A stretch of 63,568 nucleotides of DNA, filler included, from Sphacelaria rigidula (taxonomy: Eukaryota): assembly GCA_964200075.2 (NCBI GenBank). It is 8 parts of 8 records of this genome, joined end to end, with 100 filler letters (N's around TTAATTAATTAA, not from the genome) between each part and the next. Parts side by side here need not be neighbours in the genome. Positions count along the whole stretch, not along the records: positions 47,753 to 55,610 come from CAXNAA020013205.1; 7 more parts are not named here. One strand, 5' to 3'. Under the pieces are notes generated by a model. That model had not been told where the DNA came from and searched no databases. It saw nothing but the letters and a program-made list of their open reading frames with translations. Below, in pieces: positions 10,695 through 57,020 of the stretch (position 1 is the stretch's first letter; every line of letters begins with the position of its first letter). The translations under genes were made by a program, and so were the position numbers.

Positions 10695-12260
10695 GTTTGA
10701 TATATAGTTGGATGGATGGGGCTGCGGTGTGGTTGCAGTAATTTCGATGTTGCAATCCGTGATTTCGTGAGAGAAGGGGAGCGCAATGTGGGTGTCGTGT
10801 ATGGTATTGGAATATTGCTGTCGATGAGTGAGCTACGGGAAACCAGACCTCGTGGGAGTTTCGCGCACATGCTGCATCGGACTTATGCCGATCAGTCATG
10901 ATGCGCGGCGATGCCGTCCCATTTCCGGTGCTGTCGTGAGGTATGCCCCCCCCCTCCCTCCCTCCCTCCCTCTCTCCTTCCCTCCCTCCCCGGGGTCGAA
11001 ATAAGCACGACTCTGGCTCGCTGACCCTCTCTGCACCTATTTATCACCGTGTGCGCTACATTTCGCCTCAGGTGCACCAACAGCGGCGAACCCAGACTGT
11101 GAGGCCGCCAGGGATTGTATCGCGGATGGATGGTGATCATGTACAATGTAATGTGGTCCCATGGAAGAATCGGCTGTCGGTCACATCGTGCGCTTTACAT
11201 CTCCGTGCGATATGTGCAGATTTGCCCGCGGTGGCGGCGGTGGAGGGGTCAAGGGCGCGAGTTTCTGTCCGCTTTTCCCCCGTAGAAATTCCTAGGATTC
11301 GTTGGATATCCAACGACGCTGGCGCATCGTTCGTCTTGATGTGGGCGGCCGACATTTTCTCCAACGGTGTTCCGGCTTGAACTTGCCGCTGCGCAGGATA
11401 CAGTAGTCATACCATCAGGGTATCGCGTGTTGAGGGTAGGTGTTATTTCTGCGGACATTGTGCGTTTTGCAAGAAACACCGGCACTTGTACAGGCGCCTC
11501 CAATTTGTTACTCCCTGGAAATAGCAAAAAGACCCGATGCAAGACTGCGAGAATCATGCGTTTTCCTTCCCCATCAAAATGTATTGTTGACGCGACCTCT
11601 TGCAATGTCTTATCCCAGGATTGTTTAGGCTTCATCTTGTCTTCGAAGTGGTTTTCGGGGATGTATGCAGTGAAGGCCCCGCACGTCAGGCGGCTAGTAA
11701 CACCTGGAAAAATACGCTATGAGGTTTTTCGCCGGCGTTGGTCTACGCACATGGTTTAGTTATTGTGGAACTGCAATATCCGACAAATGCTATAGTTCGT
11801 TCTTTTTACAAAATCCGCCGCAAGTCCTACAGTTAAGTCTTGACCCGAAGGCCATTTGTGATGTGTTAAAGATTTACGTGGTGGACTGTTGGCATTTCGC
11901 TGTCGATTTTCAGCCGCCGAGAGGTTTGGGCAAATGTTGGCAGCTGGCAATAACAAGCCTTTTCCGTCGATACCCTTGTAGAGGACCTTCATAATCCCCA
12001 CAACACTTCGTGGCCGAACCCGCTCTCCATCACAAGGGCGGTCATGTAACAAGAAAAATCAAGACCCGAGCACCTTCGCGTTTCGTGTACGCGGCAATTT
12101 CGTTTACGGCCGAGGTAGAAAATTCCAATAAAAACGATCAAGCGGTTGCAAACTGTTTCGTTTCTTTTGTTGAAAGCGAATTCGATCTGTTTTTTGCTTC
12201 ATGCATTTTATTGAGTCGAACGCTTTTGCTGAGATAACAATTTCGGGCGCGACTACTACC

Positions 12261-12739
12261 GTGAGGCCGGATGTTATGGCAAACTGATTTTTGGCGCACG
12301 GATTGTTCACCTTGGGGACATTTGACCCCCTTATTGACCCCCAAACAGGGAAAATCGCCAACACACGTCTTGAACACTTTGCATCACCCCACAGAGAGGA
12401 GCCTAGCCCACTTTTCAGATTCGCTTGGCTCCGAGGTTTCGAGTTTGGCCGCTGAACAAACTTTGGTGTGCAAAAATCCGTGCTTGCCGACCCCCGCCAG
12501 CTTGCCCAGTATTCTGTGGAGATCGCCATGGATTTTGTTGCACGCTGAGTTTCCTTCAGCGGCCGCTCTCGAAACTTTGGAGCCAAGCGAATCTGAAAAG
12601 TGGGCCAGGCTCCTGATGCAAAGTGTCCAAGACGTGTGTTGGCAAGTTTCCCTGTTTGAAGGTCAAAAAGTGGCTCAAACGCCATAACAGTGAACAATTC
12701 GTGGGCCAAAATTCTTTGTGCCATAACATCCGCCCTGAC
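12261..12739. mobile_element. Foldback/MITE-like element with inverted arms of about 220 bp
   Basis: For example, ggatgttatggc...cccacttttcagattcgcttggctcc is inverted relative to ggagccaagcgaatctgaaaagtggg...gccataacatcc. A second copy (centre plus right arm) lies at 23878-24139. Confidence 0.85.
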
Positions 12740-16080: not shown

Positions 16081-16393
16081 GCGTACCCATTGTTCAGCGG
16101 CTGTGTGAGTGGATCCTTTGCGCTGGATTTGCGCCTGCCCGTGCACCGGCTGGCTGCCGTGAGACTGGCCGAGGCGGAAAACTTTCAACAGCTTGAACTG
16201 AGGTGCGAGAGAGATGGAGATTGAAACACACACATAATTTTTGTTGGAAAAGAGACAATCTAGCGCGCAGCGTGTACTTGTATAATATCACATTGGAAAC
16301 GAACATAGGCGGTCTTGTGAGCATGGAAATAGGAGAGAGGAGAGGGAGGGGGGGGGAAAGAGAGAGAGGGAAGGAGAGAGACACACACACAGG

Positions 16394-16485
<92 letters not shown>

Positions 16486-16486
16486 A

Positions 16487-16517
<31 letters not shown>

Positions 16518-32999: not shown

Positions 33000-33590
33000 C
33001 GCGTTTTTTTATCCGCTGTTGTACGCCGATGCACCACTTTTTCTGGTGAGTTTCGTGAACTACGGCTCCTACGGTCAAGATCCGGGCTCTTCGCTATCAA
33101 AGAGTTCAACCAGAGTTGGAGGCTCGAATTGACAATTGTTCCAGCATCTCCACAATTAGCACCGACACGCTCGTGAAGTGGGCGCCTGAAGCCAACACGG
33201 CGTTGACCGATATAGCTCCCCGCGCCCGTTGATCGGGCAGATATAACTCGGCAGGGACATGATTGTCTTGGTCCTCGACCGGCACCGGCTCCGCAGACTG
33301 ATGGATCGTAATCCCCACTTGGCGCCACGGCTGCACGCTCGGCGCATCCATAGACGCCCCCGCTGGCGTCACCGGCACCGCCGGCGGGTACGAAGCCCCG
33401 CCCGCAGAGCCAAATTTCAGCTGAAAACCGGCCGGCTCCGCAGCCGGCGTCTCGCCTTGCTCTGCTGCCGGCGGCGCCGGCACCGAGCCCGACACTAGAG
33501 AGGTCGGTCCCACCTGCACCGCCCGTTGCGGAGCAGCAGCCCCTGCGGCTGAACCGAACCCAGAACCGGACCCCTGCTGACGCCGCTGCC

Positions 33591-33634
<44 letters not shown>

Positions 33635-34680
33635 GAACTCGGCTGTGCACCTCCACCGCTGGAGGATCCGCCGCTGCCGCCACCACGACTACCTCGTCTT
33701 TTGTGATTGCGAGGGTACGCGGCACTCGTCTGCCCAGACTCCCCCGCAAAAGGCGTTGGGCACTTCCGTGCGATGTGACCGACCTGGCCACACTGAAAGC
33801 AAGTAAAATTGGAGGCGGCACTGCCTGCGGATTTGATCCGTGGTTACGCGAGCTCGAAGACTGCGGCGACGAAGTGGATGATTTCCCGAATACTTCGACC
33901 CGCCGCCATGCCTGAGCTTCAGCCACCACGCTATCCATGACTAAATACGGGTCCGACTTCCAATTTGTTTCGTGCTGTAGCTATACAAGCACGGCCTGCT
34001 TAGATTCCGCCGGTGCCAGACCCTCCACCATCGCTTTCGTGACCACCGCAGCGGGCCCTGGGCGAAATTTCCCATCGGACGAACGATAAATCATTTCCAC
34101 GTTGGGATTTTCCGAAAAATACGTCTCCAACTTACCCATTATGGACTCCACCCTCTCACCCATGGTCCTTCCCTTGTGGTTCATTGCGACAGCCTTCGCC
34201 ACGGCCGCGGACGCCTGAGTAAGCTCTACCTCCGCTCCTGCCACATGCCCTGCGTGCTTCTTTATCGCTGCGGCCAACTGCAGGGGCGTTATGGTATGTT
34301 TTTTGTGGAACCTTCTCGCGAAGACGCGCTGCAAGGGGGTAAGCACCAGTTGCGCCATAGAAACCACCTGATGCCTCACCGCACCCCCTGCATTCGCGTG
34401 CTCCACCCTCCTTTTGTATTCCATGTTTTTCGTTTAAAACTATCGAGAGGCACCCTCAGAACACAGACTCCCGTAACGGGGCGGCCGCAACTCTTCCCTT
34501 GGAACGATAGGGGTTGCGGTCGTTTCCGCGGGCTCTACTGCCGGTATCTCAGCAGTCGACATTCTCGAGCGGAAAATCGAAGATTTGTGAAACCTTTTCG
34601 AACTTCAGATCACACCTGCTTTCTTCGCCGCTCCACACAGCTCTGGGATCCTATAAACACCCGCTGTACGCAGCTCCAGT
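33000..34680 (-). mobile_element. Degenerate Ty3/gypsy-type gag-protease remnant
   Basis: Gag-like ORF 33981-34424; frameshifted CCHC knuckle CFQCGQVGHIARKC (~33760-33802); Gln-rich linker (CTG repeat ~33592-33633); aspartic-protease-like VNAVLASGAHFTSVS (~33165-33210) with the catalytic D replaced by A. No RT or integrase is seen, and the boundaries are approximate. Confidence 0.72.
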
Positions 34681-40155: not shown

Positions 40156-43100
40156 CTGCTCCATCCGCTCGTACGAGGTGACCTCGGTATGGTACACCAC
40201 ATCGTCCAGCGCCCACTTCTCCGCCTTGTGTTTTCGAGTCACTTCTTGCTTCATCGCAGTCAACATTCCCTGCGCAGTCGAGAGAGGCGTGCATGTCGAC
40301 GCAAATAAGGCGTGAATTGCCGAATGACTATTTTTCAAATGATTTACCGGGTCCCGTTAAGACAGGTGCGTAATTAATTGTGCGTTGTTGAATCAAGTGC
40401 AGGGAGTTGAAAGTTGGCGTTTATAGGCGACAAATTGAGTCTGCTTGTTGTCAACAATTATATTGACGGCTACCCCACACCTTCAACAGGGCTAATTAAT
40501 TTGTGAAAGAAGAAAACTCTAGAGTACTTCATTCAAAGGGTTGAAAAAAAGATGATGCATGTTGTGCTACATCTCCGGTAGAGTAGGGGAGAAACTCTGT
40601 GCCGCACTGCTCAGCTCCATAGCCTAAGCCAGACGATCTCGACAAGAGAACTATCAACGAGGGAGGACTCCAGTAGCACTGGCCTCGTGCTCGACAAGTT
40701 CTTTATTTTAACTTGTTATTATTGCGGAGTGATCTTCAACAAACCACATCGTGAGCCAGCAGCAAGGAGCCACACACAACAGATAAGGGCCATCGATCCA
40801 GGATCCCCTGTCCTCTGCCACTGCTCCAATCATGCATGCGATTATACTGAAACCTAGGGCTTATTGGTATCATTTGGCTACAGCTCCCTCCGGCCGTGCT
40901 AGGTTGTCTTCGTAGGCTGGGCGATCTGTCGTTGAGATTGAATTGTTCACGAGCGAGCTATAAGCAGATTGAAGATTGTCCACCTCCGACGCAAACCCAC
41001 CCACCTGCCAATACAATGAGTGATGTTCGTCGATTGCTTGCCTGTGGGTTGAAGAAACCCGTGAGCCAGTAGCAGGTAGGTCGTCCATTGTTCAGCCAAG
41101 CTCTATCCTGCTCATCGCGAGTGATGAGGGAGCTGAACCATAACCCCAGCGTTGGCAGAATCCACGAGAACTCGTCCCCCGTGATGGTGAAGGCCCACAG
41201 CCGGGGCACCTTTTTAGTCGAGAAGTACGGGAGAGGGTGTGCATAGAGAGGAGTAGATGCACGCCTTTGGGGGAAGGGCACGCCAGAAGCGGCAAGGGTG
41301 CCGCGTGCAAGTCTTCGATACGAACCCGGGGAGTAGCGTATCCGCTTCGTTCTCGGTGAACTATGTACTGTACTAGCCGTACGATGCGTAGTAGCGCCGG
41401 CGTCACCTACCACCCCCCTTGAAAACCAAAACCATCGGTTGAAAACTGTAGACGATGGCTTTGTCTGAATTCAAACATGGTTCGAGAGTACGACTTCTGC
41501 ATTATTTCCTGGAAGCTGGGTTACATATTCTTTATACCGTGGAACATGGTGTACGAGACCCCTGAGTAATACACGAGCGCCCTCACCCCCCCGCGCGCGC
41601 GCCTCAAGAAAATGACACTGATCGCATGATGCGTTGTCGGCTGTTTCTCGCACAGTACCAGTACTAACTGTACTGTACCGCCGTGCGTAGTACGTCACCC
41701 CCCTCATACTCCGTCTCGAAAGCGATGCGTGGTCAACGGTCAAACGACTAAGAACAGCCGATCATCGAAATTGAGAATGGAGCTTTTTATTGAGGGTGAA
41801 AACCCGGAGGATTAAAATCTTCGTATCCTCACCAAATCTTTCAAATATGGTTTTATTCCTTCCCCTACTGATAGCTTTTGACAACTACTACACGCCCTAC
41901 AAATTTGGATTTCGAGAACCGAAATGCTGGAGTCCTAGATGAGGACTAATTTCGGGGAATTTAGGTGATCCGATCGGATCGCCGAAATTCCCCGAAATTG
42001 GTTTTTCACCCAGGACCCCAATATTTCGGCTATCGAAATCCAAGTTCGTATGGCGTGTAGCAGTTGCCAACAGCTACCAGTAGGTGAAGGAATGGATCCA
42101 TATTTCGAAGATTTGGTGTGGATACGAGGAGTTTAATCCTCCGGGTTCTTATCCTTAATAAAAAGGTCCATCCTTAATTTCGATGATCGGCTGTTTAAGG
42201 CAAGCAACAAAATGTGAACCCATCCGCCCCCCTCATACTAGCACCCCCGGGCGATGACTACTCGATTTCAAGAAGCTCATGGACCGGGGGTCGTATAGTG
42301 CGCACTACATCCTATGGCAAATGGCACAAAAAGAAAGTGTTTGATGGCTGAGTCTCACTTTCGCGTCGTAGACAGCATAGAGCGTCTCCTGGAGCTCTTC
42401 CGTCATGACGACCTCACCCTTGATGGCTTGCTGGAGCTGTGTCAAGATGAATCGGACTTTCGCGACCACCCTCTGTAGCCGTTGAATCTCCTGCAAGTGC
42501 AATGGTGGTACAGCGGGTCGTTGGAGAAGAATCGACGAAACAAAAGCCATCGCAGAGTTCGTTATTGATCAGCTAGAACAAAACTGTTGAGGGAGGTATA
42601 TATATATATATATATATTTATACATATATCTACTGTACATCCGAAACGTCGAACTACAGCGGACCGGTGACGATAGATTGGAGAAGCGATCGCCTCGTCA
42701 AAAAGAGGACGGAATCAGAAATTTCTTGAGGTGTCACGCTAGCTCGTACCGCGCAAGCTCCCGTGAAAAATCCCCCCATCGATGTCAAGCTATTTTATTT
42801 TATTTTCTGCTTTTTCTCTTGTCTTTTGTTTTGTATCCCCTTTTTTTCTCGTCTCTTCATAGTCTATCTACCCTGTTCGTCTGCTCTACGTTTTTTTTTT
42901 TTTCTGTTTTTTTTGCTTTTTCCGTCACTCTCCTCCAGGGAATGTTTGAGATTTGTTTTGTCTCGGGTACGTCTATCGTGTGGACAATGACCACGGTTGG
43001 ATCATGACTACATCGGGGGGTCAGTTAGCAGTTAAAGTGCAATAATCAAGTCAATCAATCAATCAAAAGCAATCAACCAATCAACCAAGCAACCAATCAT

Positions 43101-46100
43101 AATCAATTAACCAAAAACCATGTCCGGTCGTTTTATCGTCTACGCCCATCACCTGGAAGAGGAAGATATTCAACGGCACGGCGAGGCCGCCAAGTTTCTG
43201 CAGTTTGGCTTTGTAGTCGTCCTCGATGTAGTCCTCCGGTAGTCGCTCCAAAAGCTCGCTAGCCTTCTCGTACACCACGTCTTCACGACTCGCACCGCCC
43301 CCACCCCCTCCACCCTGACCAAATGAGAAATCACCACGTACGTACGTGTGTTGGAGCGTTTGGATGCTTATCGACGGTAAATCCATTGAACGTCAAACCC
43401 CGCGCGGAACCGACGGCATTTATCGCGCGCACGGTAGTGTTTCCGTGGATATATTATCCTAAAACTTGATAGCACACATGTGCATAGTTTTCAGGTCTCG
43501 CGTCTAAGGGGTCTTATCAACGCAGATTTTTTCTTTTCAGATTTTTTGTTTTTCCTTCGCTTCGTTGCGAAAAATTGGGATATCCCCCCGACTGCTCCCG
43601 GACAACAATTGCTGAAAAACGTTCCGACGCTAGATGTTTAGAGATATTTGTAGTCAGCCTCAAATCGATCTATCTATTGCCTGACCTGGTGAAAAAATCT
43701 GCTCTCAATTGTTTCGATTTTTTTCTTCCTTACAAAAAGTAGGAGATTTCGGGGGGGAAAAAAAGACGATGGTGATACTCCTAAGAAGTACCAGAGTTTG
43801 TCTGTGCTTGGTTGAGTTTCACACGGAGATTGCGTGTCTTGTTGTTGTCCTACCTTCGGCTGTGTGTTGCCCAAGGTACCAAACAACGCGTTGACCTCTT
43901 TAACTCGGAACGTCAAGTCGGCATTCGGGTGTAGGCCGAAAATTTCCGGCGTGTCGATCTCCGGGAAAGTCTTCACGTAGTCCTTGTAAACTCCCAACTG
44001 CTCGGAGCTACAGGAAACGATGCACGGGGGGGGGGGGGGGGGGGGGGGGGGTCGCTTTTTNNNNNNNNNNATTAGGGGGGAAATTTTTCGGGCTCGTCTC
44101 CGCGTTACCCTGGACTTCTGGGGCGGGAGAGGGTCGTACTCACTTTTTGCTTGCTTTAGTCATTTGACCATTGACCATGCATCCCCTCGAGACGGTGCGC
44201 GGTTCCTACCCCTGATAGAGACACCTCCAATGTTTGGGCGCGTATCACGTTTTTTCCCCATATATTACACAGTAATCTTTTACATGTCTTACCCATGAAG
44301 GGGGGGGGGGGGCGGGGTGGGTAGTCTTCTTCCTTCGGCCGGGCGTTCTTAAANNNNNNNNNNGTTTTTCCCCCTGTTTTGCCCAATTATCTTTTTCCTT
44401 GTTTTCCCCGGGAGGGGGGGGGGGGGGCAGGGAGTGTAGTCATGATCTTGCATGCCGTAGTTGTAATATCATTGAGGTTGCATCCCTACAAAGCCGGGGC
44501 GGAGCACGCCAGTTTTTCGCCGGACCAGGCTCGCAATCACCAAACGCGAAGCGTGTGAAATGTTGGGCGAGTCGCGTGAAGGGTGAGCTGCATCCTGTTA
44601 AAATCGTTCGGCCCGAAGTGTACCAATAATCTTGCATATGAATGACAGCCTCGAATGAGTTTCTTCATTTTCTGGTACCTGCACCTCCAGAGACAGCCAT
44701 AGGTTACGTTGCGTCACGAGTATCTCGCGATTTAAACATTGCGTTGTATGATCACTCTCGTTGTGCGGAGTTGACGTTCTCCACCCCGCATAGTATGATC
44801 TAGTTCGACAACCATCATGGTTACTGCAAAAACAAATGCGAGGAAATAAACGGTAAACCTGTTTGCCTAGCTTACGCAGTGTGTGGCGTGTTTTACAGCG
44901 TCGTTGCCAATCGACGCCAACCCTGAAAGGGGGAGGGTTGGAGGGGGTGTACTGATGATCTTGCATGCCATAGTCATATGACCATAGACCTCGCATCCCG
45001 CAAAGCCGGGAAGGAGCACGCCGGGTTTTCGCCGGATCAAGCTCGCAAATAATCACCAAGCGCGAAGCGCCGTGGTGTGTTCGGCGAGTCGCGTGTAGGG
45101 TGAGCGGCATCCTGCTAAGATTGGTCAGCTCTAAGCGTGCTGATTATCTTGCATTTGGATGGCAGCCCGCACTGAGCTGCTTCATTTTCTGGCAACACCA
45201 CTTCCTGAGACAGCCACGGCTTACACACTGCCTCATGGGTGTCTCACCATGCAAATACTACGTAGCAACATCACCCCCCTTTGCACGGAGTTGAGGCTCT
45301 CCCACCCCGCACAGAATTATCTAGCTCGATTACCATCATGGTTACCGCGAAGAAGCAATCTCAAGCGCGCTAAAACAATCGGTAACCTGGCTGCTCAGCT
45401 TACGCAATGAATGGCGTGTTTTACAGCGTCATTGCCAGCCAACGCCAACCCCCACTAGAAGGCCGAGACAGAATACGCCGGATTTTCGCTGGACCAGGCT
45501 GAAAACATAAAGGGGGCGCGGGCGAGGGGATAACGACCCCGGAAGTATGAAAAAAAATCGCGTACTCGTAGAACAAGTGGATGCGCACACGCTGCTTTCC
45601 CTGCCCATGTTGTCGAACTATACACTTTCTGCGGCGGGGTGACCCAAAATAGAGTACGTCGTATGAGAGGATTCACAATATATATATTTCAGATTCAAAG
45701 CGATATTTTGCGACGGTTCGTCCCCATGTTTTCCAAGAGCTGTGTTGTATCCCATGCATCAGACACAAAAGCAGGCGGCATTAGGCGTCCGCAAAGGCGC
45801 ACTCGAGATTCTCGAACGCAGCAGCGCTTACCTAGGAATTGTGTACTTGAAGTCCTGGGGTATGCGGAATATAGGACTCGGAGGGTTGTAGGTGAAGCTG
45901 TCCGCGCATGTGTTGGGAGTAAGCCACACCTAGACGTGGCGTCAATCCATAAAGCATGGAGCATGACCGAGCAATTTGCGAGGCCGTTACGTTTTCGGGA
46001 CCTCAGATACCCTCACGATCCGTGGTGTAGTGTGGATGGCAGGGTGGTATGAAACCATTTCGTCTCAAGTAAGGGCACATACACTCTAAGGAACTTCTCG

Positions 46101-47027
46101 AACGGCCGGGAAAACCCTGTCGGCATGTACTCTCCCTATGCTGCCCACTTTATGGGCTGTCGAACCTGATATCAGTTGGTCGGATAGGTACTCTTTGTAG
46201 AAGGTCGTCGTCAAGCACCCACGCAAACTCCGCTCCTGTGTGACGCACACAATTTCTGACCCAAAACCGAGGTTTCGGCAAAGAGCACAACTCAATCTGT
46301 GCCGTGTGTGCTGAAAGTACGTTTGAAAACGCATGTTCGCGGCTGGTGTATCTTCACCTGCGTGTACGTCTTGAACATACGCCGGTCCAGGTTGTCTGTG
46401 ATCTTGCCCCCGTACTGCACCTCCGACACCATGTACTGAAATGTTGGCCAACTGCGATATCAAAAACATGCGAGTTTACGAGGGGTGTTTTGATATCTTT
46501 ACCGTAGCACCGAGACGGTTGATTGGTTGATGGATTGATTATCGCACTTTAATTGATCCCTCAGGAGTCATGATCCAGTCGTGGTCAATATCCACATGAT
46601 AGACCTACCCAAGGGGAAAAAAGCAAAATGGGAACACTCGCTGAAAACTAGTGGGGAAAACAGAAAGGAAAAACAGACATCGCATATCTCCACTCCTTCG
46701 CTTTTTGAACTGCAGCTGCACCAATGCAACACCGACAATTGCCCGGGCGAGAATCAGGCTCAAGTTAGTCTCAGGCTTTCATAGCTAGTTGGAGGAACGG
46801 CAAGATTGTCGTTTGTGCGTACCTGATGGGCCCATTGTAGAGATGTTTTTCCAAGAACAGAATGCATGCGGTAAGGTCGCCGTTGTTGTACTCGTATGGG
46901 ATGCACCATCCCAGCGGACCAAACTTCCTCCGCTCTTGCACCTGTGGGAAGAGGGTAGTAGCCGAATGCGTGCATGCGACAAATCTCCGAGGTTGACAAC
47001 AACAGCAACAGCAACAGCAGCAGCAGC

Positions 47028-47074
<47 letters not shown>

Positions 47075-47381
47075 CGCAGGGATATTCTCCGGGGAGACGA
47101 TGTTGATTGAGGGAGATGGTGGGCATATTTTCAGCCCGTTGAGTATACGCAGTAATGTTGTACTTTTTAACGAAGTACGTCTGCAATGACGAATGATCTT
47201 TGGGTGGACGTACATCGTGTGAAGCTGCGCACAAACGTACCACAGAGTGCAGGAAGCACAGGGAGAACAACAGCTGCCTCCATTGAGCGGTCTCCACCCT
47301 CTCCAGTCGCTCCTGGTCCACGATAACTGTGTAAGATCGTAGGATCCCGGCCTTCAATCCAGCTGGCGGCTCGTTCGTAAC
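40156..47381 (-). CDS. Axonemal dynein heavy chain, outer-arm gamma (DNAH5/8, ODA2-like) type; partial, AAA6 to C-terminal domain
   Basis: Nine phase-compatible exons: 47381-47241 (VTNEPPAGLKAG), 46941-46823 (VQERRKFGPLGWCIPYEYN), 46451-46358 (EVQYGGKITDNLDRR), 45929-45832, 44007-43854 (DTPEIFGLHPNAD), 43314-43153 (PLNIFLFQ), 42490-42359 (EIQRLQ), 41209-41042 (TLGLWF..GRP..YWLTGFFNPQ) and 40269-40156 (GMLTAMKQEVTR..WALDDV). Confidence 0.96.
41753..42195. mobile_element. 443-bp spacerless foldback MITE with AACAGCCG..CGGCTGTT ends and a TAAG target-site duplication
   Basis: The whole element is an imperfect palindrome centred on gatccgatcggatc (~41967-41980). It interrupts a subfamily A repeat (acgacTAAG|element|TAAGgcaagcaac), so the empty site is known from other copies. 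Confidence 0.92.
44436..45451 (+). repeat. Two tandem full-length (about 500 bp) copies of dispersed repeat subfamily B in a dynein intron
   Basis: Copies at 44436-44923 and 44949-45451 are separated by a G-rich linker. Other copies lie at 15919-15985 (-), 19916-20200 (+), 31837-31908 (-), 57021-57484 (-), 58260-58290 (-), 61580-61956 (-), 61980-62030 (-) and 63463-63568 (-). Confidence 0.92.
46997..47074 (+). repeat. (CAA/CAG)n microsatellite in a dynein intron
   Basis: Directly visible. Confidence 0.95.
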
Positions 47382-48759: not shown

Positions 48760-48975
48760 TGTAACGCGTGAGAGGACCGCGTGCTTAGAGGATCGCATCT
48801 GAGTTTGAACATCCCTATGGTTGGGGTTAGGGTTAGGGTTAGTGTTAGTGTCGGGGTTGTGGTCAGGGCCGTCGTTCCTGCAGGGACTGGCCCGATTGAG
48901 TTTGAAAAACGTCGATCATGGGGTGTTTTGGAGTACGGCGCGGTCCTCCAAGCTACGGTCCTCTCACGCATTACA
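48760..48975. mobile_element. 216-bp MITE with TGTAA..TTACA terminal inverted repeats, a GTGG target-site duplication and internal (GGGTTA)-like repeats
   Basis: The TIRs are tgtaacgcgtgagaggaccg / cggtcctctcacgcattaca. GTGG lies at 48756-48759 and 48976-48979. The interior has ggggttagggttagggttagtgttag. Confidence 0.9.
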
Positions 48976-51450
48976 GTGGTACAATCTCTGTGTTGCAATG
49001 TTGATATTTGGACGAGTGCAGATTCGTCCATCTTGTTGCGATGGTACTATCAAGCATAGCGCTTACTCTATTCAGCGAGGGCTCTTTTCTCGAGTTGGTC
49101 GTCCAATTAGTATAGTTGACTGCGAAGAGTTTCATCCTGAGTATTTCACTACTGTGAAGTGCAGACTGAAGACCCGCTGGTCTCGCAACTACTAGAATAT
49201 TTGAAGATGGAGTTGCGCTAGCTTCTCTTTCGTAAGATCTAGACTATCATATACTCATGTGTTGAACTTGCCATTCTGTGCAACTGCCGAAGAAGATTCT
49301 AGTTCCGGCGAGAGACTATCCAGTTCCAGTTCGAATGATCAGGCTGTACTGTAAGACTGGTGCTTGTGTGAAGCTCACCCACCAAGATTCGTTGAGCGAA
49401 CGTTCTCATGGGTATCGTTTCTGGGCTGAGGGGTAGATACCCCCCAGCACGGTTGCATCACTGCTGGGCACGACGAAATGTCATGGCCTGAGTGGACGTT
49501 GAAAGCTTCAGCATCAAAAAGACAGAAATGCGTCGAATCCAAAAAAAGTCATCGCAACATGATAATATCTTCAACCATACGTGATCAGCACGCGAACAAA
49601 ATTTTGAAGTGAGGCAGTCAGCGTCGTACAGATTTTCGACCAGGTCCCAGGACAGATGCCGCAAACTAGTTCACATGGGTTCCTGACGTACGTCCCCGCC
49701 GGCTTGTTGCCACCGCCAAAAGTCACGCTAACCCCCGGTCATCACTCCCACCGAACGTCGCATCTTCAGCAGCAGCTTCGAGGAGTCGCCAACAGAACGG
49801 TAAGTGCCCCAATTCGGTGTACGACGTTCCTGGCGCAGACGTCGTGTCGGTGGAATTCGCCGACACACCCTGGTTCACGTGAATACAAGTGAAGACTCTC
49901 GGACACACTTGAACATCAAACCCTGGATGTTTCTTTCCCACACTGAAAACTCCCATTTTCCCAAGCGGCACCCCCCGTCGAGTCATCCTTGTCCCAAAAT
50001 GCCGTGGCTGACTCGGCATGATGATGTGTAGTACTAGTATACCCAGAAGAGGCCGTGTTGTAGGCCGTGACCGCAGCGATTCTAGGGATCGGTTACACGT
50101 TTGCGAAGTCATGGATGACCCCTGTCATCACGAACGAGTACAGCGACGGCGCTGGGCATGAACTTGAGTCGCGGAGTAAGCAGGGAGGAGCGGGTAGAAC
50201 TACCGTTTTATCGTCTGTATCAATGTGTACGAATTCACCTGACCACTTTTTTGGCGCTCCGAATCACTTGGGTACATGTGGAAGTTGAGACGAACGCGTG
50301 CTTGCAGGACCGCATCGGAATTTGAACACTACTACGATTACGGTTAGGGTTGGGGTTAGCGTTGAGGTTATGGTCGGGTTGCTGCGACAGCCCCCCACCT
50401 CCCCTTCAAACCAGCTCACTGCAATTGTTTTCACACGCCCGAGCGCACGATTATCTTCACACGCAACTGGTTTGTACAGCGCCTCAATCGACTCTCGTCG
50501 TGATTTCTATGTAGATGAGAGGGAACCTTCACCTCTGGTCGTTAAGGTGTACTACAGAGGCACGCCACCCCGACGAGAACCTTAACCACAACCTCGACCA
50601 AGATTTACCGAAAACCCTCGTGCGGCGTGGGTTCAGTATTTCCTATTCGAAGTGCGCCGTACCAGCGCTTGGGACAGTTGCCACCTCGCGGCATCTAGTT
50701 TGGTTCCCGGTCGGGAATCGAGTATAACTTGAGTACATGCCGTTGTGTACGACTGATCGGCGAGGTCCACGGTCGGACGGTTATACGTTGCTCACGAGAA
50801 ATAGCGGCCTTCGTTAGGAGGTCTAGTGCGGCGTAGTCACTAATGCACGCGTGCGATGTCTTGGTCGCGCTTTCTCTCATTATGTAGCGCGAGAGCGATG
50901 AATGTCACGTCGGACAGCACTGGCCGGCGTCGCGCAAGATATCATCCTGTCCGAAAAAAATGAGTAGTGCCTGATGAAGCCCTTCGGGCTAGCGGGGGGA
51001 CGTGAGGAGATTAGACAGTACCGGCGCAGTATTTGCTTGGTCAATTGCTCGACGGCTAGGATATAATTGGGTATATAACGTGAACGCAAACGGGAGCACG
51101 CCATCCGCTCCGTAACGGCTTCAATCGTGAGAGTGATATCTTGGAACCATCTCGATTGCTCAAAAAAGTACCCAAGTGAGCTTCCCCCTCATTTTCCCGG
51201 CAGTTTCATGACATTTTCTCATGCAGAGTAAACTTGAATGAATTGACACGTGAAACTAGCGACCCTCATGCCGAGTTTTGCCGTCCTCGATATTCGACGC
51301 GTTGCTTTGGTGACCCTGGTGGTTGACGAAACTATGAACCACGGGGGCCTTGAGGCAGGCACGTCATGGAAGGGGCATACATGAATTTCCGCCACACGTT
51401 TTCACCCCTGTCCTGATTCCCGTTCTGTGTCCGAACACCAACAGCACACC

Positions 51451-52877
51451 ATGTGGTCCGCCAAGAAGCTGTACCTGTGCGTGGTGGGGATCATCTTCTG
51501 CTTGGTTCTGTCATCCAGTCCCGCAACGGGGGGTGAGTCGTGTCGTCAGCCCCATTGAGAAACGGTGATGTCTTGAAGACTAGTCCCGACACTGGGAGCT
51601 TCCTTGTTGAGTACGAGGTGGTCAATAGAGGGTTGACGTTTCCACCCTCGATGAAAGTCTCCGGCATGTATCCCGTGGGACGTGGGGTGTTTTCTCGTGG
51701 ATCGAATTGACAGGGTGCCGCTCAGATGAGGAATGAAAGTGGTTATACAACTGTCGAGGGTGTGAAGCAGGGCGCCGACGACCAGGGACAACACTCTTGA
51801 TTTGTGTAATTTTTTTCCCGTGGTATTTGTAGGCGAACGGGTAGTACCCGAGAAGTCGTGAGCACTGGACGTTCAAAAGCGCTGGCAGATGTCGACACTT
51901 TGTCGGACACTTTGAACTGACAACGGTCTTGATACTCGATGTCCACCCTCGACTGCTGTAAACTCCAGAGTCCACGGCTGCGGTTGTGACGACACGGGAA
52001 ACCGCGACTTTGAGCGAGGAGGCGCTAGCCGCGGCGGTGCCAGGAAATCCACTCGGTGTTTCGGCGTCGGACGGTAAGTGAGGGAACTGAATGAGGCGGG
52101 GGTTGTCGGCTAACTTGTCGTGGTATCGCTTCACCAACATATACAACCGTAAGTCCGATGCATCGAATCTGAAGAATGAAATTTGACCGGCGCTTTATAA
52201 CTGTAGAGCAACACATTTGTGTAATCCACATCCAGAGGCCACATCTTGAGAGATGCTGCCGCCGTTCCCCTTTTGCAGCTAGAGTGATGCTACCGTCATA
52301 TGTTTCTTGAGGTTATGGTGTCGAGAGCGCGGTGTTGCAGGGACTCGTCGAATCGATTGTGGAAGGAATGTGTCTCATAGGATGATGCGGTCCATGGATC
52401 ACGTGATTTTCGCACTCAGTACACCTAAATCGGTATATCGTACGGCTACGTAGTGTTTTTTGTAACGATGTGCACACTGCCTCTGCTCTCGTATTCCGTG
52501 CGACGCTCGATCTCGCCCGTGCAAACCCAGGCGAGGAGCACCGAGGGCTTTCCAAGAAGGGTAAGAAGGGTAGGAAGGGCAAGAAGAAAGGGAAGAAGGG
52601 CAAAGGCAAGAAGGGGAAAAAAGGCAAGAAGGGCAAAGGCAAGGGCAAGAAAGGGAAGAAGGGAAAGAAGAAGGGGAAGAAGAGCGACGACTACGATGAC
52701 GATGATCACTATGACGATGATGACCACTACGACGATGATGACCACTACGATGATGACGACCACTACGACGACGATGACTACCACTACTACGTCTACGATG
52801 ATGTCATCATCTACTCGGATGGCCACCCGGACGGCGCCGAATACATCTACGAAACCACCGACGACCTTTACCGCTAA
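51451..52877 (+). CDS. Complete three-exon gene for a secreted 177-aa Lys/Gly-rich plus Asp/His/Tyr-rich diblock protein
   Basis: Exons are 51451-51532 (MWSAKKLYLCVVGIIFCLVLSSSPATG, signal peptide; donor GTGAGT), 51969-52073 (donor GTAAGT) and 52531-52877 (GEEHRGL-S(K/G)43-S-DDY(DDDDHY)4DDDDYHYY...LYR*). Both introns are phase 1, and the total is 534 nt. Synonymous codon variation within the repeats supports a coding function. Confidence 0.85.
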
Positions 52878-53869
52878 CCCGATCACATCTGACATTGCCA
52901 TGAGGGAGCCATCGCGCCGCTGGGACCGGGTCCGGAAACGCCCCCGCGATATGATTCTTTCGCACGGGTAGTCGAAAGTCATACGATGCATGGTGCATTG
53001 GTATCGGGCAGGGTTCCGGGAGCGGGCGACACTGTTCACGTGTGTATGTTCGTGGTCGCCGAGCGGTTGTTGAGCACCACCTCATGGGTTACCGCGATTT
53101 TCATCACTGGTGTACGATGTTGATATTGTGCGCACCGTCCGATTTCTCGTCCACGGATACATTTTTTCGGTGTTGCCGAGGGTTGATCGCTTCTCCTGGA
53201 GGTGTGGACACTCGTGAAAACCCCCTGATGAGTTGATACTGCTGAGATTTGCGCACTGTCCTCTTGGTGTACCGAGCACAGCGGTCGCGTTGACGGATGT
53301 GAAAGATGGAAACTAGGCATCGGCACGTCGGTTGTTTATCTGTAATTGTAGCTTGGGCATCATGCGGCCTGACGGCACAGACTGCCAAACATTGTGTTCT
53401 ATTACGCGCGCTGTTTTATAGCCATCGGTCACTCGTTGACTCGGCGGCCAAGTGAGTTGTATGACGTAGTGTGTACTTGAGATCTGGGTGTGCATGTTGG
53501 AGCTCCCGCTGTGGAATACCATGGAAACAAGTAGAACCTTCCGCATTATGTTTGACGACGGGATCAGTAAGTGAAGCGGTTCCCGGCAGGATCGTTGATG
53601 TGTGTGACCGGTTCGGCTGCGATGAACCCCTTTGTGCAGAGCGTGTAATCCTCGGACGGGAATTGCTCATGAAAGAATCGAATGCCCGGACCCACCTTCA
53701 GATGGACGTATCTAGTCAGGGGACGAGAGGGAAGGGTCGAGAGGACGAGCATTTTTATTGCCACGGTGGATCACCTGCGGAGAATGTACGCGTGATCCAG
53801 ATGGCTTCATTGCGGTCTAGAGGTCGAGTCATCCGAGAAGTTGCTTCGAGACGGACGTGAAATATTCCC

Positions 53870-55535
53870 GGTACGCCGCGCGTTGTTGCGTAGACATTTT
53901 TGGCTTCTGCACAATCATTGCTATGCAAAGAAGATTTTTTCTCCCGTGGCCCGTGACGAAGGATAAGAGGAAAGGTGTTTCATGCTTTGTAGCCGAGAGG
54001 AACGTGTGCAAGTATTGAACAGGCCATGGTGTGCTGTAGCAGGGCGCTACGTCAGCGGTTACTGCAATGGGTGCTGATCCCGAAACAGGTGACAGTATCT
54101 GAAAACCCACACACATACTTCTCCGTCAATTATACACACGATCCAGAATTCACACACCGGTGTGGAAATTCAATCATTCTTGATGAAAGCTGGAGACCGA
54201 GTAGAGGAAGTGAACGGGGGGGTCATCGGCTCTGCTGCCCCGTGCTCGCAAACGAGAATATCCAAAGACCCAAACTGATCACATGCCGAATCTCGTCTTG
54301 GGCAAGACCACGGTGAAACGTACAATTTGCCGTCAGGAAGAATTTTGAATGCTAAAATTCCGATTCCACACGAAGCGAAACATTTGTCCTTGCTACAAGT
54401 TCCCTGATGAAATGATGCCGCACGTCAACGTGCTTGGAGCTGGAATTTGTCACAGGGTTCATCGCAACCTGGATATCCCTCTCACTATCGGGAAGGCACG
54501 GCATCACCATCTGCGGCTACATGCTACGCCACACACACTCGCTGGCACAAGAACCCTTTCCCCCTTCTCTCCCGCGTAAGTCTGCTGCGAAATCTTGATA
54601 GTCCTCGATGTCTCTCATAGTGTAGTCCAGAATACCGATGCAAACCTCCAAGATTCCTCACCGGAACTATCTTGTCGAGTTCCACACCGTACTCGCCACA
54701 CCTCCCCTTGTCTCCCACCGTAGACATGTCGTCTGCAACTACTACGAGTATGATGATTATCCTACCATCATTCATCAATCGAAGTACACATAAATCCGCC
54801 AAATATTGCTCAAATCCAATGCCTCTCAAGCACTTTGCCAAGTGGGTATGCCATTGCCTACTCGTTTTTTTTACCTATATAATGAGCGATTGAGTCTTAC
54901 TATCTTCCAAGACAAGCTACCACAACCAGGCGGCAAGCGCATGAACACATCCTCTTCCAACTCGGACTGAACAAAAGCTTGCTCTACGTCAAAACGACGC
55001 AATGCAAGATTCTTTTCACAAGCCATAGCCGCCAACAGACGCACACTAGAAACAGCTACGGTGGGGGCATCCAGTTCTCAAAAATCTACGTTCGCTCTCT
55101 GCATGTCTCCTCTTGCTACTAATCTCGACTTCATCTTCGTGGGCCAGCCAAACTCATCCGCCTTCAAATAATACACCCATTTAGCATGGATGTAATTCTC
55201 AACTGGTTGCTATTCGGCAGCATCAACAGTCCCTGCGTCGAAGATGCTCCACCATTCCCGGTCCATGGAGCCTTCCAAAAGTCCACCGTACTCGGAGTTG
55301 ATTGCTTGCGCATAGCCTTTCGGCACCTTCAGGTCCTTCGAAGGGCACTGAGCAAGCTCGGGCGGATCGGGCGGCGGGCGGTCCTCATGCTTAGCTGCTT
55401 CAATGTCCGCCCGCGTCGCCAGCTTTGGTGTATTCCGCATCGGCGGCCGCCCGCGCCTCCCAGCATCTACGACGTCACGCGTGAGGAGAGCAGACAACAA
55501 AGACTGTTTGTCTATCTGCTCCATAAGATCCATGC
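53870..55535 (-). mobile_element. Degenerate Ty1/copia fragment (RT and eroded RNase H)
   Basis: The minus strand reads VPKGYAQA..MDRE, AKWVY..KSRLVARG, APTVAVSSVRLLAAMA..FDVEQAFVQSELEEDVFMRLPPG..RLNRSLY..SRQW, LVVVADDM, with stops and frameshifts. Confidence 0.9.
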
Positions 55536-57020
55536 TGTAACAACAAATTGTGCGAATTGAGGTTTAACTCCGAGATGAGGTTCAAGCCTAAAACAGTGCT
55601 TTCCCCAGATNNNNNNNNNNNNNNNNNNNNNNNNNNNNNNNNNNNNNNNNNNNNTTAATTAATTAANNNNNNNNNNNNNNNNNNNNNNNNNNNNNNNNNN
55701 NNNNNNNNNNCATCTTGCGGCACGACCAGTGTGCTCTTGCCTGGGCATGTCAGGTGTGCGTGTGCCTATCCGGCGCAACGGTCTATCGTAATTCCACCGC
55801 ATTTTGTGAAACGAACCGTCTTCAGACACGCTATCGCACGAAGAATTGGGACGTACTCGGCACTCAATGCAGTACAATAACATCATCGCCAATAGTATAC
55901 CAATCGAGCAGCGGCGGTGCCTTATGTTACTAGGTTAGTCTGCAGTTAACAGCGATATGCCCAGGTCGTGCTGATTTGGGAAACTTGAAGAGTTGTCGTG
56001 ACGACAGAGAATACTGGGTTTACTGCCGGCCCAGCTCGTGGCGGATACAAGAATTTTTCCAGCAAAAACCGCTTGCGACATGTGCTGTAACGAATCTCAT
56101 TCGTCATGTAGCTTTCTCCCATGTGCGGCATCGCTCGTGAAGCGAGCTGTTGAAGCTAACAGTCCCCGACCCTTTCCCCACGATGACCTCCCGTCTGAGC
56201 TCGAGATAATTGAAACTACGGAACATGATTTCCACTCGTAGAACGTACACCTCACCGTCATACACCGCCCCCATAACATTGACAAGGAATGGCATTGCCT
56301 TACCTCCTCGAGGGACGTTCAACGCATGACGTCCTCGTCACACGCATGTGATATGTGACTGGCAGCACAAGTTTTGGTCTCGTATGCTGTCGCTGTGTGC
56401 TTTAAACCTGGCCGATTGACGTCACACCCTCGACAGTATGTGGCCAGTAGTTGCGATGGACGAAAATACGCACTGCATGACGTTTAGGCCTATTGCAACA
56501 CTTGTTGGCTGACAATAGTTGTAAAATGCCTATACTTTACGGCAGTACGAATTGTGTCGTGCAAGTTTTGACCATATATTGCCCAGGGTGTAGTTGATGA
56601 TATACGATGAGACAAATTAGTCAGGAAGGCTAGGGCCGTGTTCGGATCCCAGCGTACCACCCCAGATGATGCAACCGTATGCCACTGGATATGTGTGTAC
56701 CTTGAAAAGGACGTGTGTTGCTCATCCCGTGCGCTTGTCGAGTAAACAATTTGATTTAAGTATATAGAGACTTGATCAAATCACCGGCCCCAACTCAGAC
56801 CCCTCGGAAGGCAGATCAATCCACACACAAACGTGCCGATAGGGTGGGTGAACTGTTGGCCGGCATCATTGTCACATGAATAATGACTTATGACGCCGAC
56901 GATCCACCTCGGCGATTATACGGATATCGGCCAGGGGAGGAGCTTGGCAAACACGCAAAGGCTGAATAACACAGCAACGACTGGATGTAGTACATCCCCC
57001 CCACTCCCCCTTTCCTTTAC

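Follow-up and report, generated by a model that had tools for sequence, protein, structure and literature searches.

Architecture of the locus

The window analysed here, a stretch of 63,568 nucleotides of DNA from Sphacelaria rigidula that is composed of eight joined parts, harbors on its plus strand a spliced gene of at least four exons, whose 177-residue product combines a signal-peptide-like N-terminus with a short pro-region, a polycationic lysine/glycine block and a polyanionic, aspartate-rich C-terminal block. The features of the locus are listed below, together with the contigs of X1 and X5, two sets of public runs from two studies, that cover them.

49786..49799, plus strand: 3' end of the non-coding leader exon (5' UTR), from the 13-nt loose end of two X1 contigs
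49800..51444, plus strand: leader intron, 1645 nt, GT..AG, with donor GTAAGT at 49800 and acceptor AG at 51443-51444
51445..51532, plus strand: coding exon 1 with 6 nt of leader; start codon at 51451; residues 1-27, signal-peptide-like; covered in X1 and X5
51533..51968, plus strand: intron, 436 nt, GTGAGT..CAG; joint in four X1 contigs and one X5 contig
51969..52073, plus strand: coding exon 2; residues 28-62, Ala/Thr/Val/Glu-rich pro-region; X1 record 3 and X5 record 9
52074..52530, plus strand: intron, 457 nt, GTAAGT..CAG; joint in one X1 contig and one X5 contig
52531-52877, plus strand: last coding exon; stop codon TAA at 52875..52877
52542..52550, plus strand: codons of R67-G68-L69, the sole RxL motif, directly before S-K-K-G
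52554..52682, plus strand: K/G polycation block of 43 residues, namely 28 K, 14 G and 1 R; KxxK occurs 20 times, overlaps included
52683..52874, plus strand: acidic Asp/Tyr/His block; 64 residues, among them 28 D, 2 E, 13 Y and 6 H
52878..53600 at least, plus strand: 3' UTR; X1 records 6-8 (depths 7498, 7500 and 3628) and X5 record 13 (52696-53600)

When joined, the segments 51451-51532, 51969-52073 and 52531-52877 form 534 nt in a single reading frame, which specifies 177 amino acids followed by a stop codon, and all splice boundaries are canonical (G/GTGAGT..CAG/A and G/GTAAGT..CAG/G). We treated X1 and X5 as RNA-like because their contigs, matched to positions 50800-53600, join exons and leave introns out; their RNA type is presumed from this behavior. 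The junction 51532/51969 (GT..AG) is spanned by four X1 contigs (depth ~13950, shorter side 26 nt) and one X5 contig (side 88 nt), the junction 52073/52531 (GT..AG) by one X1 contig (depth ~11850, side 28 nt) and one X5 contig (side 105 nt). The sides of the X1 contigs fall under the bridging rule of 31 nt, whereas the X5 contig satisfies it, and a single X5 contig of 502 nt (record 9) contains all three coding exons joined to each other. Both junctions proposed in the first-pass annotation are thus joined in the contigs of X1 and X5, whose GT..AG joints also bear out its three-exon model and the strand. Since the joints are GT..AG, the strand is fixed, and since the exon phases run from the ATG at 51451, so is the frame; other frames and the opposite strand, which are open over the repeat, were rejected on these grounds.

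In the RNA-like runs, the introns are either uncovered or represented about 1000-fold less than the exons. The intron at 51533..51968 has a depth of 0 in X1 and X5 and of 26.9 in X9, a DNA-like run with even coverage of exons and introns (26.9) and no joint, and the intron at 52074..52530 is covered by one unspliced X1 contig (record 4, depth 9.69). The mismatch-free X1 contigs of the gene reach depths of ~3600-12300, compared with 0-10 in the introns and 0-4 in the upstream flank, values that describe expression poorly; contig depth is also inflated by related transcripts in repeat bins. Among these contigs, record 3 covers the exon at 51969..52073 at a depth of ~12260 with 0 mismatches. The 3' UTR may end at ~54350, judging from a 1096-nt X1 contig that begins at 53255. 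The locus is a genuine nuclear gene of a brown alga, which is spliced and transcribed in abundance.

The locus is neighbored by a dynein exon that is 98-100% identical to proteins of Laminaria, Sphacelaria and Ectocarpus and at most 84% identical to the matches below the top eight, every one of which either has no name or does not belong to the brown algae. That its best named matches are brown algae at 98-100% agrees with the earlier assignment of the host to a non-diatom stramenopile. On account of these dynein matches, an oomycete was rejected as the source.

Leader exon and upstream start codon

The X1 and X5 contigs stop matching the genome at 51444-51448. The 13-nt loose end that two X1 contigs carry before 51444 has one match in the window, at 49786-49798, followed by G/GTAAGT, which places the end of the leader exon at 49799; the leader intron therefore measures 1.65 kb. 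X5 record 9 provides 133 further nt upstream of 51444, and the leader exon probably comprises at least 133 nt and reaches back to ~49667, if these nucleotides are colinear with 49667-49799, as we infer.

An ATG at 49656 lies in frame with the coding sequence. Across the leader exon, no stop codon interrupts the frame between this ATG and the one at 51451, and the first stop further upstream is at 49605. Initiation at 49656 would add 50 residues and give rise to a 227-residue protein with an internal hydrophobic segment, which could be membrane-anchored or cytosolic; alternatively, the open reading frame may not be translated. We regard either scenario as rather improbable. The X5 contig with 133 nt of upstream sequence would, if colinear, end at ~49667 and thus downstream of this ATG, and the leader of a related transcript shows a one-base length difference just before the start codon (loose end, compared by eye), so that the frame of the leader is not kept. 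Moreover, the synonymous-only variation and the in-frame indels described below argue that the main reading frame is translated. If transcription began upstream of 49656, the hydrophobic segment would become internal and serve as a signal anchor or as nothing; even as a signal anchor, it would still leave the charged blocks on the lumenal or extracellular side.

The predicted precursor and its charge pattern

The signal peptide noted in the first-pass annotation has, by rule, the classical build expected for entry into the endoplasmic reticulum. It starts with an n-region containing K5 and K6, continues with a hydrophobic core of 14 residues (mean Kyte-Doolittle value over 11 residues of up to 3.33) and ends with S-S-S-P-A-T-G, which places small residues at positions -3 and -1 (A-x-G) before E28 and makes cleavage near G27/E28 likely. 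Beyond the signal peptide, the 177-residue product contains neither Cys nor a further hydrophobic segment, and its C-terminus is not of the KDEL type. Judging from these features, the protein probably enters the secretory pathway. Import into stramenopile plastids depends on Phe, Trp, Tyr or Leu after the signal cleavage site; as none of these residues follows the likely cleavage site, plastid targeting was rejected as a destination.

The pro-region of 42 residues ends with R67-G-L69, the single RxL motif of the protein. The processing site postulated earlier is therefore placed like the one in the diatom 'RXL domain', which is outlined as a pro-region that follows the signal peptide, ends in RXL and is cleaved off by an endoprotease (PMC5525289, PMC4557024). 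The composition of the two blocks that follow matches the counts of the first-pass annotation exactly. The K/G block, 64% of which is lysine, is encoded by an imperfect DNA repeat (71-80% matches) with mixed codons (22 AAG, 6 AAA and four Gly codons), and the acidic block consists of four perfect DDDDHY units and then a less repetitive C-terminal end rich in Tyr, Ile and Val. The identical DDDDHY peptides are encoded by units with 0-4 synonymous differences. A contig from organism C, compared by eye, carries an in-frame deletion of 3 nt at 52803, one replacement and two third-position changes, and contigs from organism B show 1 difference in 369 coding nt, as against 7 differences in the 905 nt of X5 record 13, most of which belong to the 3' UTR. 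The synonymous variation in the DDDDHY units, the in-frame deletion and the lower number of differences in coding than in untranslated sequence suggest that the main reading frame is under coding constraint. No second K/G or D/Y/H block is present in any of the six frames of the whole window.

The part of the protein downstream of RGL (residues 70-177) has 30 charges of either sign and is thus electrically neutral (FCR 0.56, NCPR 0.0, kappa ~0.65). Its sequence-charge-decoration value is -22.2, whereas 2000 shuffled versions had a mean of -1.55 and an extreme of -7.67. Its high FCR, near-zero net charge and segregated opposite charges fit the block polyampholytes or self-coacervating IDPs, a physical class rather than a homology family, to which the segment is assigned from sequence alone. 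A single-sequence AF2 model of the protein is almost entirely coil (pLDDT 60, pTM 0.17).

Searches for related proteins

A protein search with the 114-residue product of the last exon, in which 8000 candidates were scored, returned none at E<=0.01. Among 1.84 billion representatives, phmmer found one match to the same product (E=2.5e-4), a 184-residue protein with a K/S/A-rich and then a D/E-rich part, which we rejected as a match in composition because it lacks a signal peptide, the K/G periodicity and DDDDHY. Likewise, no Pfam family matched the 114-residue product at E<=0.01, the ESM Atlas contained no usable match to the whole last-exon product or the tail, and none of 591 pattern matches in metagenome contigs was confirmed. 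Among proteins of 62-200 residues at E<=10, none shares three words with residues 75-114 of this last-exon product, its less repetitive tail, a comparison that an annotation with 227 residues would escape. The first-pass statement that homology to the diatom proteins was not shown still holds, as no homologs were found in the protein, family and metagenome searches.

The protein searches brought up no orthologue from another brown alga; this absence is weak evidence because of low-complexity filtering and because the gene is apparently unannotated. Indeed, the protein collections searched do not seem to include it. The papers searched contain no description of a secreted brown-algal protein with K/G and D/Y/H blocks, nor of brown-algal RXL processing. 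In X1 and X5, loose ends and variant contigs reveal further transcripts of the same build. Their leader and signal exon resemble those of the present gene and they, too, have K/G(/S) and D/H/Y runs, whereas their pro-region has diverged.

Comparison with known systems

The label 'silaffin/cingulin-like' that was initially given to the protein stands with respect to architecture, but not with respect to serine content and repeat arrangement. Silaffins and other RXL-domain proteins (Sil1p, tpSil3, the cingulins CinY and CinW, the silacidins and silicanin-1), as far as they are portrayed in the diatom literature consulted, likewise possess a signal peptide and a short pro-region ending in RxL. 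The diatom biosilica proteins, in the accounts given by PMC5525289 and PMC4557024, and the protein described here also have lysines clustered as KxxK, with 20 overlapping motifs in 43 residues in the present case, as in the KxxK/pentalysine definition of silaffins. Y-type cingulins, as depicted there, have a Tyr-rich beside a Lys-rich part, and diatom RXL-domain proteins are, in the same accounts, of low complexity, disordered and without a fold, as observed here.

Screens for silaffins use a threshold of ~18% each for K and S. Silaffin-like domains are rich in both residues and rely on phosphoserine, which gives the zwitterion, whereas the lysine block considered here is K/G-rich with 2% Ser (6% in the whole protein). 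Moreover, the diatom proteins consist of alternating repeats with one RxL per repeat, whereas the present protein has one K block, one acidic Tyr block and one RxL; it shows neither the alternation of KxxK with Tyr/Trp domains typical of Y-type cingulins nor the Ser/Asp/Glu repeats, each ended by RXL, of silacidins, its acidic block being composed of Asp, His and Tyr, with 2 Ser in 64 residues and no RxL. Finally, silaffins occur in diatoms, whereas the host here is a brown alga. Homology to silaffins is neither shown nor expected, and the likeness is one of build only.

A comparable combination is found in Siliplant1 (Slp1) of sorghum, which is described as a secreted, disordered and highly expressed protein with Lys-rich, His/Asp-rich and Tyr-rich segments, RXL motifs and zwitterionic units (10.1101/518332). 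According to the same description, Slp1 is Pro-rich (20%) and on the whole basic, with a pI of 9.28 and seven mixed repeats, whereas the present protein has two long pure blocks with a net charge of 0 and no proline-rich scaffold. In sequence, they bear no relation to each other.

The cement of Phragmatopoma, our preferred working analogy, contains basic Gly/Lys/Tyr/His proteins and the polyacidic Pc3, which are packed as complex coacervates. It involves charge-matched condensation in secretory granules, Ca/Mg and, for setting, oxidative Tyr chemistry. The protein described here similarly pairs a K/G-rich polycation with a Tyr-interrupted polyanion. However, the charges of the cement reside on separate proteins and its anion is phosphoserine, whereas here they are found in one chain and the anion is Asp. 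The cement belongs to an animal, the sandcastle worm, and the resemblance would at most reflect convergence.

Further parallels exist in other secreted proteins. In defensin precursors, a cationic segment is balanced by an equally charged anionic propiece in the same precursor. The present protein likewise comprises a signal peptide, a cationic segment and an equal anionic segment, but its cationic block has no hydrophobic face or cysteines, and its anionic part is C-terminal, longer and repetitive. RxL motifs also occur elsewhere in SAR, namely in the Plasmodium PEXEL (RxLxE/Q/D), the Toxoplasma TEXEL and the oomycete RxLR motif, where R-x-L likewise follows some tens of residues behind the signal peptide. 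The motif reported here reads R-G-L-S-K and thus has neither the x-E/Q/D nor the R of these signals, and host targeting is implausible for a photosynthetic organism that lives free; what might carry over by analogy is no more than the notion that an RxL-specific protease is shared. Aspein and Asprich of mollusc shells and glassin of sponges are secreted and have long poly-Asp or His/Asp runs, as does the present protein; however, they have no attached polycation, stem from mineralising animals and show no homology to it.

Proposed function and alternatives

The reading that we favor, at somewhat less than even confidence, is that the gene encodes the secreted precursor of a polycation/polyanion pair that acts as a cross-linker of alginate and fucan, a coacervating cement or an adhesive. 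In the order of the precursor, a signal peptide of ~27 residues would be followed by an acidic Ala/Thr/Glu pro-region ending in R-G-L, a polycation of 43 residues and a polyanion of 64 residues. Because the charges of the two blocks are equal and opposite, the chain would neutralise itself in the ER, the Golgi and vesicles, and it may be packed in the secretory pathway as a dense coacervate. Outside the cell, the pro-region would be removed at RGL, and the blocks might be split from each other at the K-K/S boundary. The polycation could then be trapped by the polyanions of the wall or mucilage, alginate and sulfated fucans, and link them ionically, while the Asp/His/Tyr block would bind Ca2+ or metals and contribute 13 tyrosines that could be cross-linked by oxidation or halogenation. 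The end product would be a cement that stiffens the wall, seals it or serves as an adhesive. In line with such a role, brown algal walls are reported to consist mainly of alginates and fucans (PMC6736953), and alginate is described as being gelled by lysine-rich peptides and poly-L-lysine (PMC6315368). It counts against a cement that the many K-K pairs could expose the chain to shredding by kexin-type proteases and that, at the ionic strength of seawater, purely electrostatic complexes of ~30 charges may be weak.

Several other functions would be compatible with parts of the evidence. The protein could be the precursor of a defence peptide, in which the K/G polycation is an antimicrobial or antifouling product that acts on membranes or surfaces and the Asp-rich block a propiece that neutralises it until extracellular processing. 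This possibility, which we consider unlikely, would suit the exact charge balance of +30/-30, the order of signal peptide, pro-region and cationic block, the precedent of charge-neutralised propieces in cationic defensins and the very high transcript level with diversified related transcripts, which is usual for defence peptides. However, the K/G block has no hydrophobic, aromatic or Cys residue and can therefore form neither an amphipathic helix nor a disulfide fold, and an alginate wall would immediately bind any free polycation. In addition, the supposed propiece is longer than the peptide and highly patterned (four DDDDHY units with synonymous variation), which suggests a function of its own. 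A lower probability still attaches to a role as an ion, metal or halogen buffer in a secretory compartment or the apoplast, with the Asp/His/Tyr block storing Ca2+, metals or iodine (as iodotyrosine) and the K/G block ensuring packing or retention in the wall. The 28 Asp of the tail indeed come in runs of four and are accompanied by 6 His and 13 Tyr, a strong halogen metabolism that involves vanadium haloperoxidases is described for the apoplast of brown algae (10.1101/2024.02.19.579948), and high iodoperoxidase activity is reported for sori (PMC11333212). Nevertheless, the exact match of positive and negative charges suggests that the blocks act on each other, rather than one of them being a passive anchor.

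Equally improbable, in our estimation, is a mineral template, that is, a brown-algal analogue of silaffins and Siliplant1 in the deposition of silica or of the Asp-rich shell proteins in that of CaCO3. The signal peptide, the RXL-ended pro-region and the 20 KxxK motifs resemble diatom biosilica proteins as outlined in PMC5525289 and PMC4557024, a Lys peptide of Siliplant1 is stated to precipitate silica (10.1101/518332), and biogenic silica is reported at wounds and sori of the kelp Saccharina japonica, in an account in which no protein is named in the text consulted (PMC3434887). By contrast, silaffins depend on serines for their phosphorylation and zwitterionic self-assembly, and these are lacking in the K block (2% Ser); sequence homology to biosilica proteins was absent in our searches, and the resemblance is unspecific because any polycation precipitates silica in vitro. 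Besides, mineralisation is not known from most brown algae. There is only a slim chance that the protein is a brown-algal counterpart of silaffins, whose RXL-processed Lys-cluster peptide would, together with its own polyanion, template the silica of kelp wounds and sori. A secreted, self-neutralised wall or adhesive material remains our preferred reading.

Implications

To our knowledge, few proteins of the extracellular matrix and the adhesives of brown algae are known, and the accepted picture of this matrix comprises alginate, fucans, phlorotannins and haloperoxidases. The leader exon, the 3' UTR, the related transcripts, the net-zero charge after RGL and the dynein-based assignment of the host to the brown algae are new here. 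For materials science, the protein would represent a natural and maximally simple self-neutralised diblock polyampholyte for sea water, and it is an easily synthesised candidate for an ionic cross-linker or a one-component coacervate cement of the alginate wall. In the alga, it may be a protein partner in wound sealing or in the adhesion of spores and holdfasts or, less likely, an agent of silica deposition in kelps. Were it a silica template, it would offer a first molecular handle on brown-algal silicification, and RXL processing and silica deposition by polycations would be common to photosynthetic stramenopiles, rather than inventions of diatoms. With this gene, the diatom-type succession of a signal peptide, a pro-region with RXL and a lysine cluster is extended to a stramenopile outside the diatoms, which bears on the age of this processing route.

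Gene structure and transcription

Splicing the three coding exons by coordinates (51000-53400 read) yielded an open frame of 534 nt, comprising 177 codons and the stop TAA, with canonical boundaries throughout (G/GTGAGT...CAG/A and G/GTAAGT...CAG/G).

51451-51532 (+), first coding exon
51969-52073 (+), second coding exon
52531-52877 (+), third coding exon

The stretch was found in twelve public sequencing runs, four of which were compared over 50800-53600. In the DNA-like run X9, exons and introns were covered at an even depth of 26.9, one 2475-nt contig matched without mismatch, and no exon-exon joint was seen over 50800-53600. In X1 and X5, two runs from two studies with two organism labels, whose RNA nature is an automated guess ('RNA?'), contigs covered the exons and not the introns: the depth across 51533-51968 was 0 in both, and that across 52074-52530 reached 4.7-9.7 in X1, from a single unspliced contig. 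The first-pass annotation had predicted the junctions 51532/51969 and 52073/52531, and contigs of both runs are joined exactly there across GT..AG introns, the former in four X1 contigs (depth about 13950) and one X5 contig, the latter in one X1 contig (depth about 11850) and one X5 contig. Our bridging rule asks for 31 nt on the shorter side, of which the X1 junction contigs have just 26-28 nt; X5 record 9, a 502-nt contig, joins all three coding exons with sides of 88 and 105 nt and thus firmly bridges both junctions. The GT..AG orientation of the joints places the gene on the + strand, and the exon phases select the proposed frame, encoding a Lys/Gly (K/G) and an Asp/His/Tyr (D/H/Y) block, among several frames open across the repeat; the other frames and the opposite strand are thereby excluded. 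The depth of X1 contigs that match the gene perfectly is 3600-12300, versus 0-4 in the 5' flank; since contig depth is a poor expression measure and the repeat bins (up to 5x10^5) also sum related transcripts, our claim is limited to the gene being abundantly transcribed relative to its surroundings.

The genomic match of the contigs ends at 51444-51448, directly after an AG. Thirteen loose letters of two X1 contigs have a single match in the window, at 49786-49798, followed by G/GTAAGT, which places the end of a non-coding leader exon at 49799, with a 1645-nt intron behind it; X5 record 9 carries 133 further letters on the leader side. Downstream, contigs run past the stop to at least 53600, and the 3' UTR may extend to about 1.5 kb, since one 1096-nt X1 contig begins at 53255. 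In the leader, the frame of ATG 51451 stays open as far back as a stop at 49605 and includes an ATG at 49656, so that transcription from upstream of 49656 could possibly give a protein of 227 aa whose hydrophobic segment is internal. We consider a differently started or non-secreted product improbable: an X5 contig would end at about 49667, if colinear with the genome, which argues against the upstream ATG, and the leader of a related transcript shows, by eye, a one-base length difference just before the ATG, so that the leader frame is not kept.

Genomic surroundings

The host had been taken for a non-diatom stramenopile, correctly, and is a brown alga. A dynein heavy-chain exon of 60 aa, located at 41039-41218 (-), is 100% identical to its counterparts in Laminaria digitata and Sphacelaria rigidula and 98% to that in Ectocarpus sp.; its top eight matches (three from named brown algae) are 92-100% identical and the rest at most 84%, the named non-brown matches among them (pelagophyte, oomycetes, diatom) being at 72-78%. 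Long introns, copia-type elements and microsatellites also occur in the window, whose further features are:

3254-6230 (+), copia-type retrotransposon remnant with a CCHC zinc-knuckle gag-like ORF, stop-broken frames and an integrase core (Pfam rve below gathering score)
7860-55710, paired 44-base N runs recurring at intervals of about 7.9 kb, plus two 10-base runs (44061 and 44354); these resemble masked stretches more than assembly gaps and leave the gene studied untouched
16094-16726 (-) and 46760-47381 (-), long di-/trinucleotide microsatellites producing spurious Cys-Leu, Ser-Leu, poly-Leu and poly-Val frames
33106-33843 (-), ORF containing long poly-Gln/poly-Ala runs besides a CCHC zinc knuckle, probably the gag of another retroelement, overlapping other-frame ORFs that arise from simple repeats
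40958-47381 (-), axonemal-type dynein heavy-chain exons (Pfam Dynein_C 40958-41470, AAA_lid_11 43674-44159)
48826-48850 and 50335-50375 (+), short degenerate telomere-like runs (TTAGGG/GGGTTA), one upstream of the leader exon and the other within the leader intron
54500-55540 (-), by eye resembling the beginning of a polymerase region of copia type, just past the long 3' UTR

A predicted secreted block polyampholyte

Predicted layout of the protein
Signal-peptide-like N-terminus, 27 residues: two Lys, a 14-residue hydrophobic core, P-A-T-G before Glu28
Pro-region, 42 residues: Ala/Thr/Val/Glu, net charge -5, ending E-E-H-R-G-L
K/G block, 43 residues after one Ser: K, G and R only (28 K, 14 G, 1 R)
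D/H/Y tail, 64 residues: 28 D, 2 E, 13 Y, 6 H, with four perfect DDDDHY units

The three-exon splicing and every block count of the first-pass annotation were reproduced, and a six-frame scan of the 63.6-kb window detected no second K/G or D/H/Y block. Judged by its sequence features, the N-terminus is predicted to be a textbook secretory signal. Plastid import in stramenopiles requires an aromatic or Leu residue after the signal peptide, and the predicted signal has no such residue; Cys, N-glycosylation sequons, a second hydrophobic segment and a retention signal are all absent from the chain that follows. The RxL motif occurs once, at the end of the pro-region. From Ser70 to the C-terminus, 30 positive face 30 negative charges (net 0; charged fraction 0.56), with a charge segregation (SCD -22.2; kappa about 0.65) far beyond the minimum of -7.67 SCD in 2000 shuffles, making this region, by physical definition, a strongly segregated, neutral block polyampholyte. 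An AF2 model built without alignment predicts coil (pLDDT 60), with a short hairpin in the Tyr/Val/Ile end.

The reading frame is kept, as repeat, organism B and organism C data, though small in number, all point the same way. The DNA of the coding repeat is imperfect (65-94% matches over 11 repeat rows), but at the peptide level the repetition is exact: any two of the four DDDDHY units are separated by 0-4 site differences, all synonymous, and Lys and Gly codons are mixed. A contig from a run labelled organism C (52740-52965) has an in-frame 3-nt deletion at 52803 and three substitutions, read by hand as one Ser-to-Ala and two third-position changes, and in the organism B contigs 369 coding nt contain a single difference, versus 7 in the 905 nt of record 13 (mostly 3' UTR).

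Related sequences

The gene belongs to a family of related transcripts and loci. On 50800-53600, X1 contains 601 contigs at a likeness of at least 88%, many at 90-95%, whose loose ends include a leader similar to that of the gene studied. In the related transcripts the signal exon shows a 3-nt gap and 8 differences, the start of the pro-region is similar though diverged, some K/G runs include Ser, and further D/H/Y runs occur; X9 holds other loci sharing about 40 nt of D/H/Y-coding repeat. Individual contigs illustrate further arrangements:

51530-52530 (+), X5 record 10, a related transcript whose signal exon, again with a 3-nt gap and 8 differences, is joined to the last-exon region; X1 loose ends suggest a diverged pro-region exon between the two
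52643 joined to 52755 (+), an X1 contig (depth 11.7) with 18 other letters between and the frame kept; either the assembly took a shortcut across the repeat, or this is a shorter variant or relative in which the K/G and D/H/Y blocks are reduced

Two word-indexed protein searches returned no homologue, Pfam no family and two ESM Atlas searches no match; the sole match of an exhaustive phmmer search of 1.84 billion representatives was rejected as compositional, and none of 591 pattern matches in metagenome contigs was confirmed. The searches did not recover the product of the gene itself either, which thus seems absent from those collections. Given the low-complexity correction and length limits of the searches, the lack of matches is weak evidence that relatives are absent.

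Possible function

The first-pass annotation described the product as silaffin/cingulin-like, and its observations were confirmed, and were extended by the leader exon, 3' UTR and related transcripts; its interpretation is supported in part. In diatoms, the 'RXL domain' comprises a signal peptide and about 30 residues ending in RXL, which are described as removed by an unknown protease (PMC5525289, PMC4557024), and Parmalean silicanins are reported to carry it too (PMC10328945). The likeness to silaffin and cingulin precursors lies in this layout, with a signal peptide, an RXL pro-region, KxxK clusters and an adjoining Tyr-rich part. However, the protein lacks the Ser-richness of silaffin-like proteins, the alternating repeats of cingulins and the RXL-per-repeat arrangement of silacidins, shows no homology to any of them and falls outside these groups; its motif, R-G-L-S-K, also departs from the PEXEL and RxLR definitions. 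Secreted low-complexity polyelectrolyte precursors are a known kind, and the literature searched (main texts) contained no description of such a protein, or of RXL processing, in brown algae.

A role as mineral template would fit reports that biogenic silica is laid down by a kelp at its sori and where it is wounded (PMC3434887) and that silica is precipitated by Siliplant1 of sorghum, which has RXL sites and parts rich in Lys, in His/Asp and in Tyr (10.1101/518332). However, the serines that define silaffin-like domains are missing from the K block, and the ability to precipitate silica in vitro is common to all polycations, leaving this role with a low probability, as low as that of a buffer for ions, metals or halogens. 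A defence peptide held in check by a neutralising propiece is also unlikely, if somewhat less so, as the K/G block is devoid of hydrophobic residues.

Composition and host biology lead us to favour, with slightly less than even confidence, a secretory precursor of a self-neutralised polycation/polyanion pair. The nearest working analogy is the coacervate cement of sandcastle worms, in which the charges are matched. Equal and opposite charges on one chain would keep a polylysine-like peptide with 29 charges off acidic lipids and polysaccharides during export, and would also favour dense packing. Outside the cell, alginate and sulfated fucan form a much larger pool and would compete to bind the K/G block, much as polycation-alginate competition is reported to underlie alginate-polylysine gels (PMC6315368). 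The Asp/His/Tyr block, once released, could bind Ca2+ or metals, and its tyrosines could be cross-linked by the apoplastic haloperoxidase/H2O2 system, which has already been linked to adhesion and to the cross-linking of walls in brown algae (10.1101/2024.02.19.579948).
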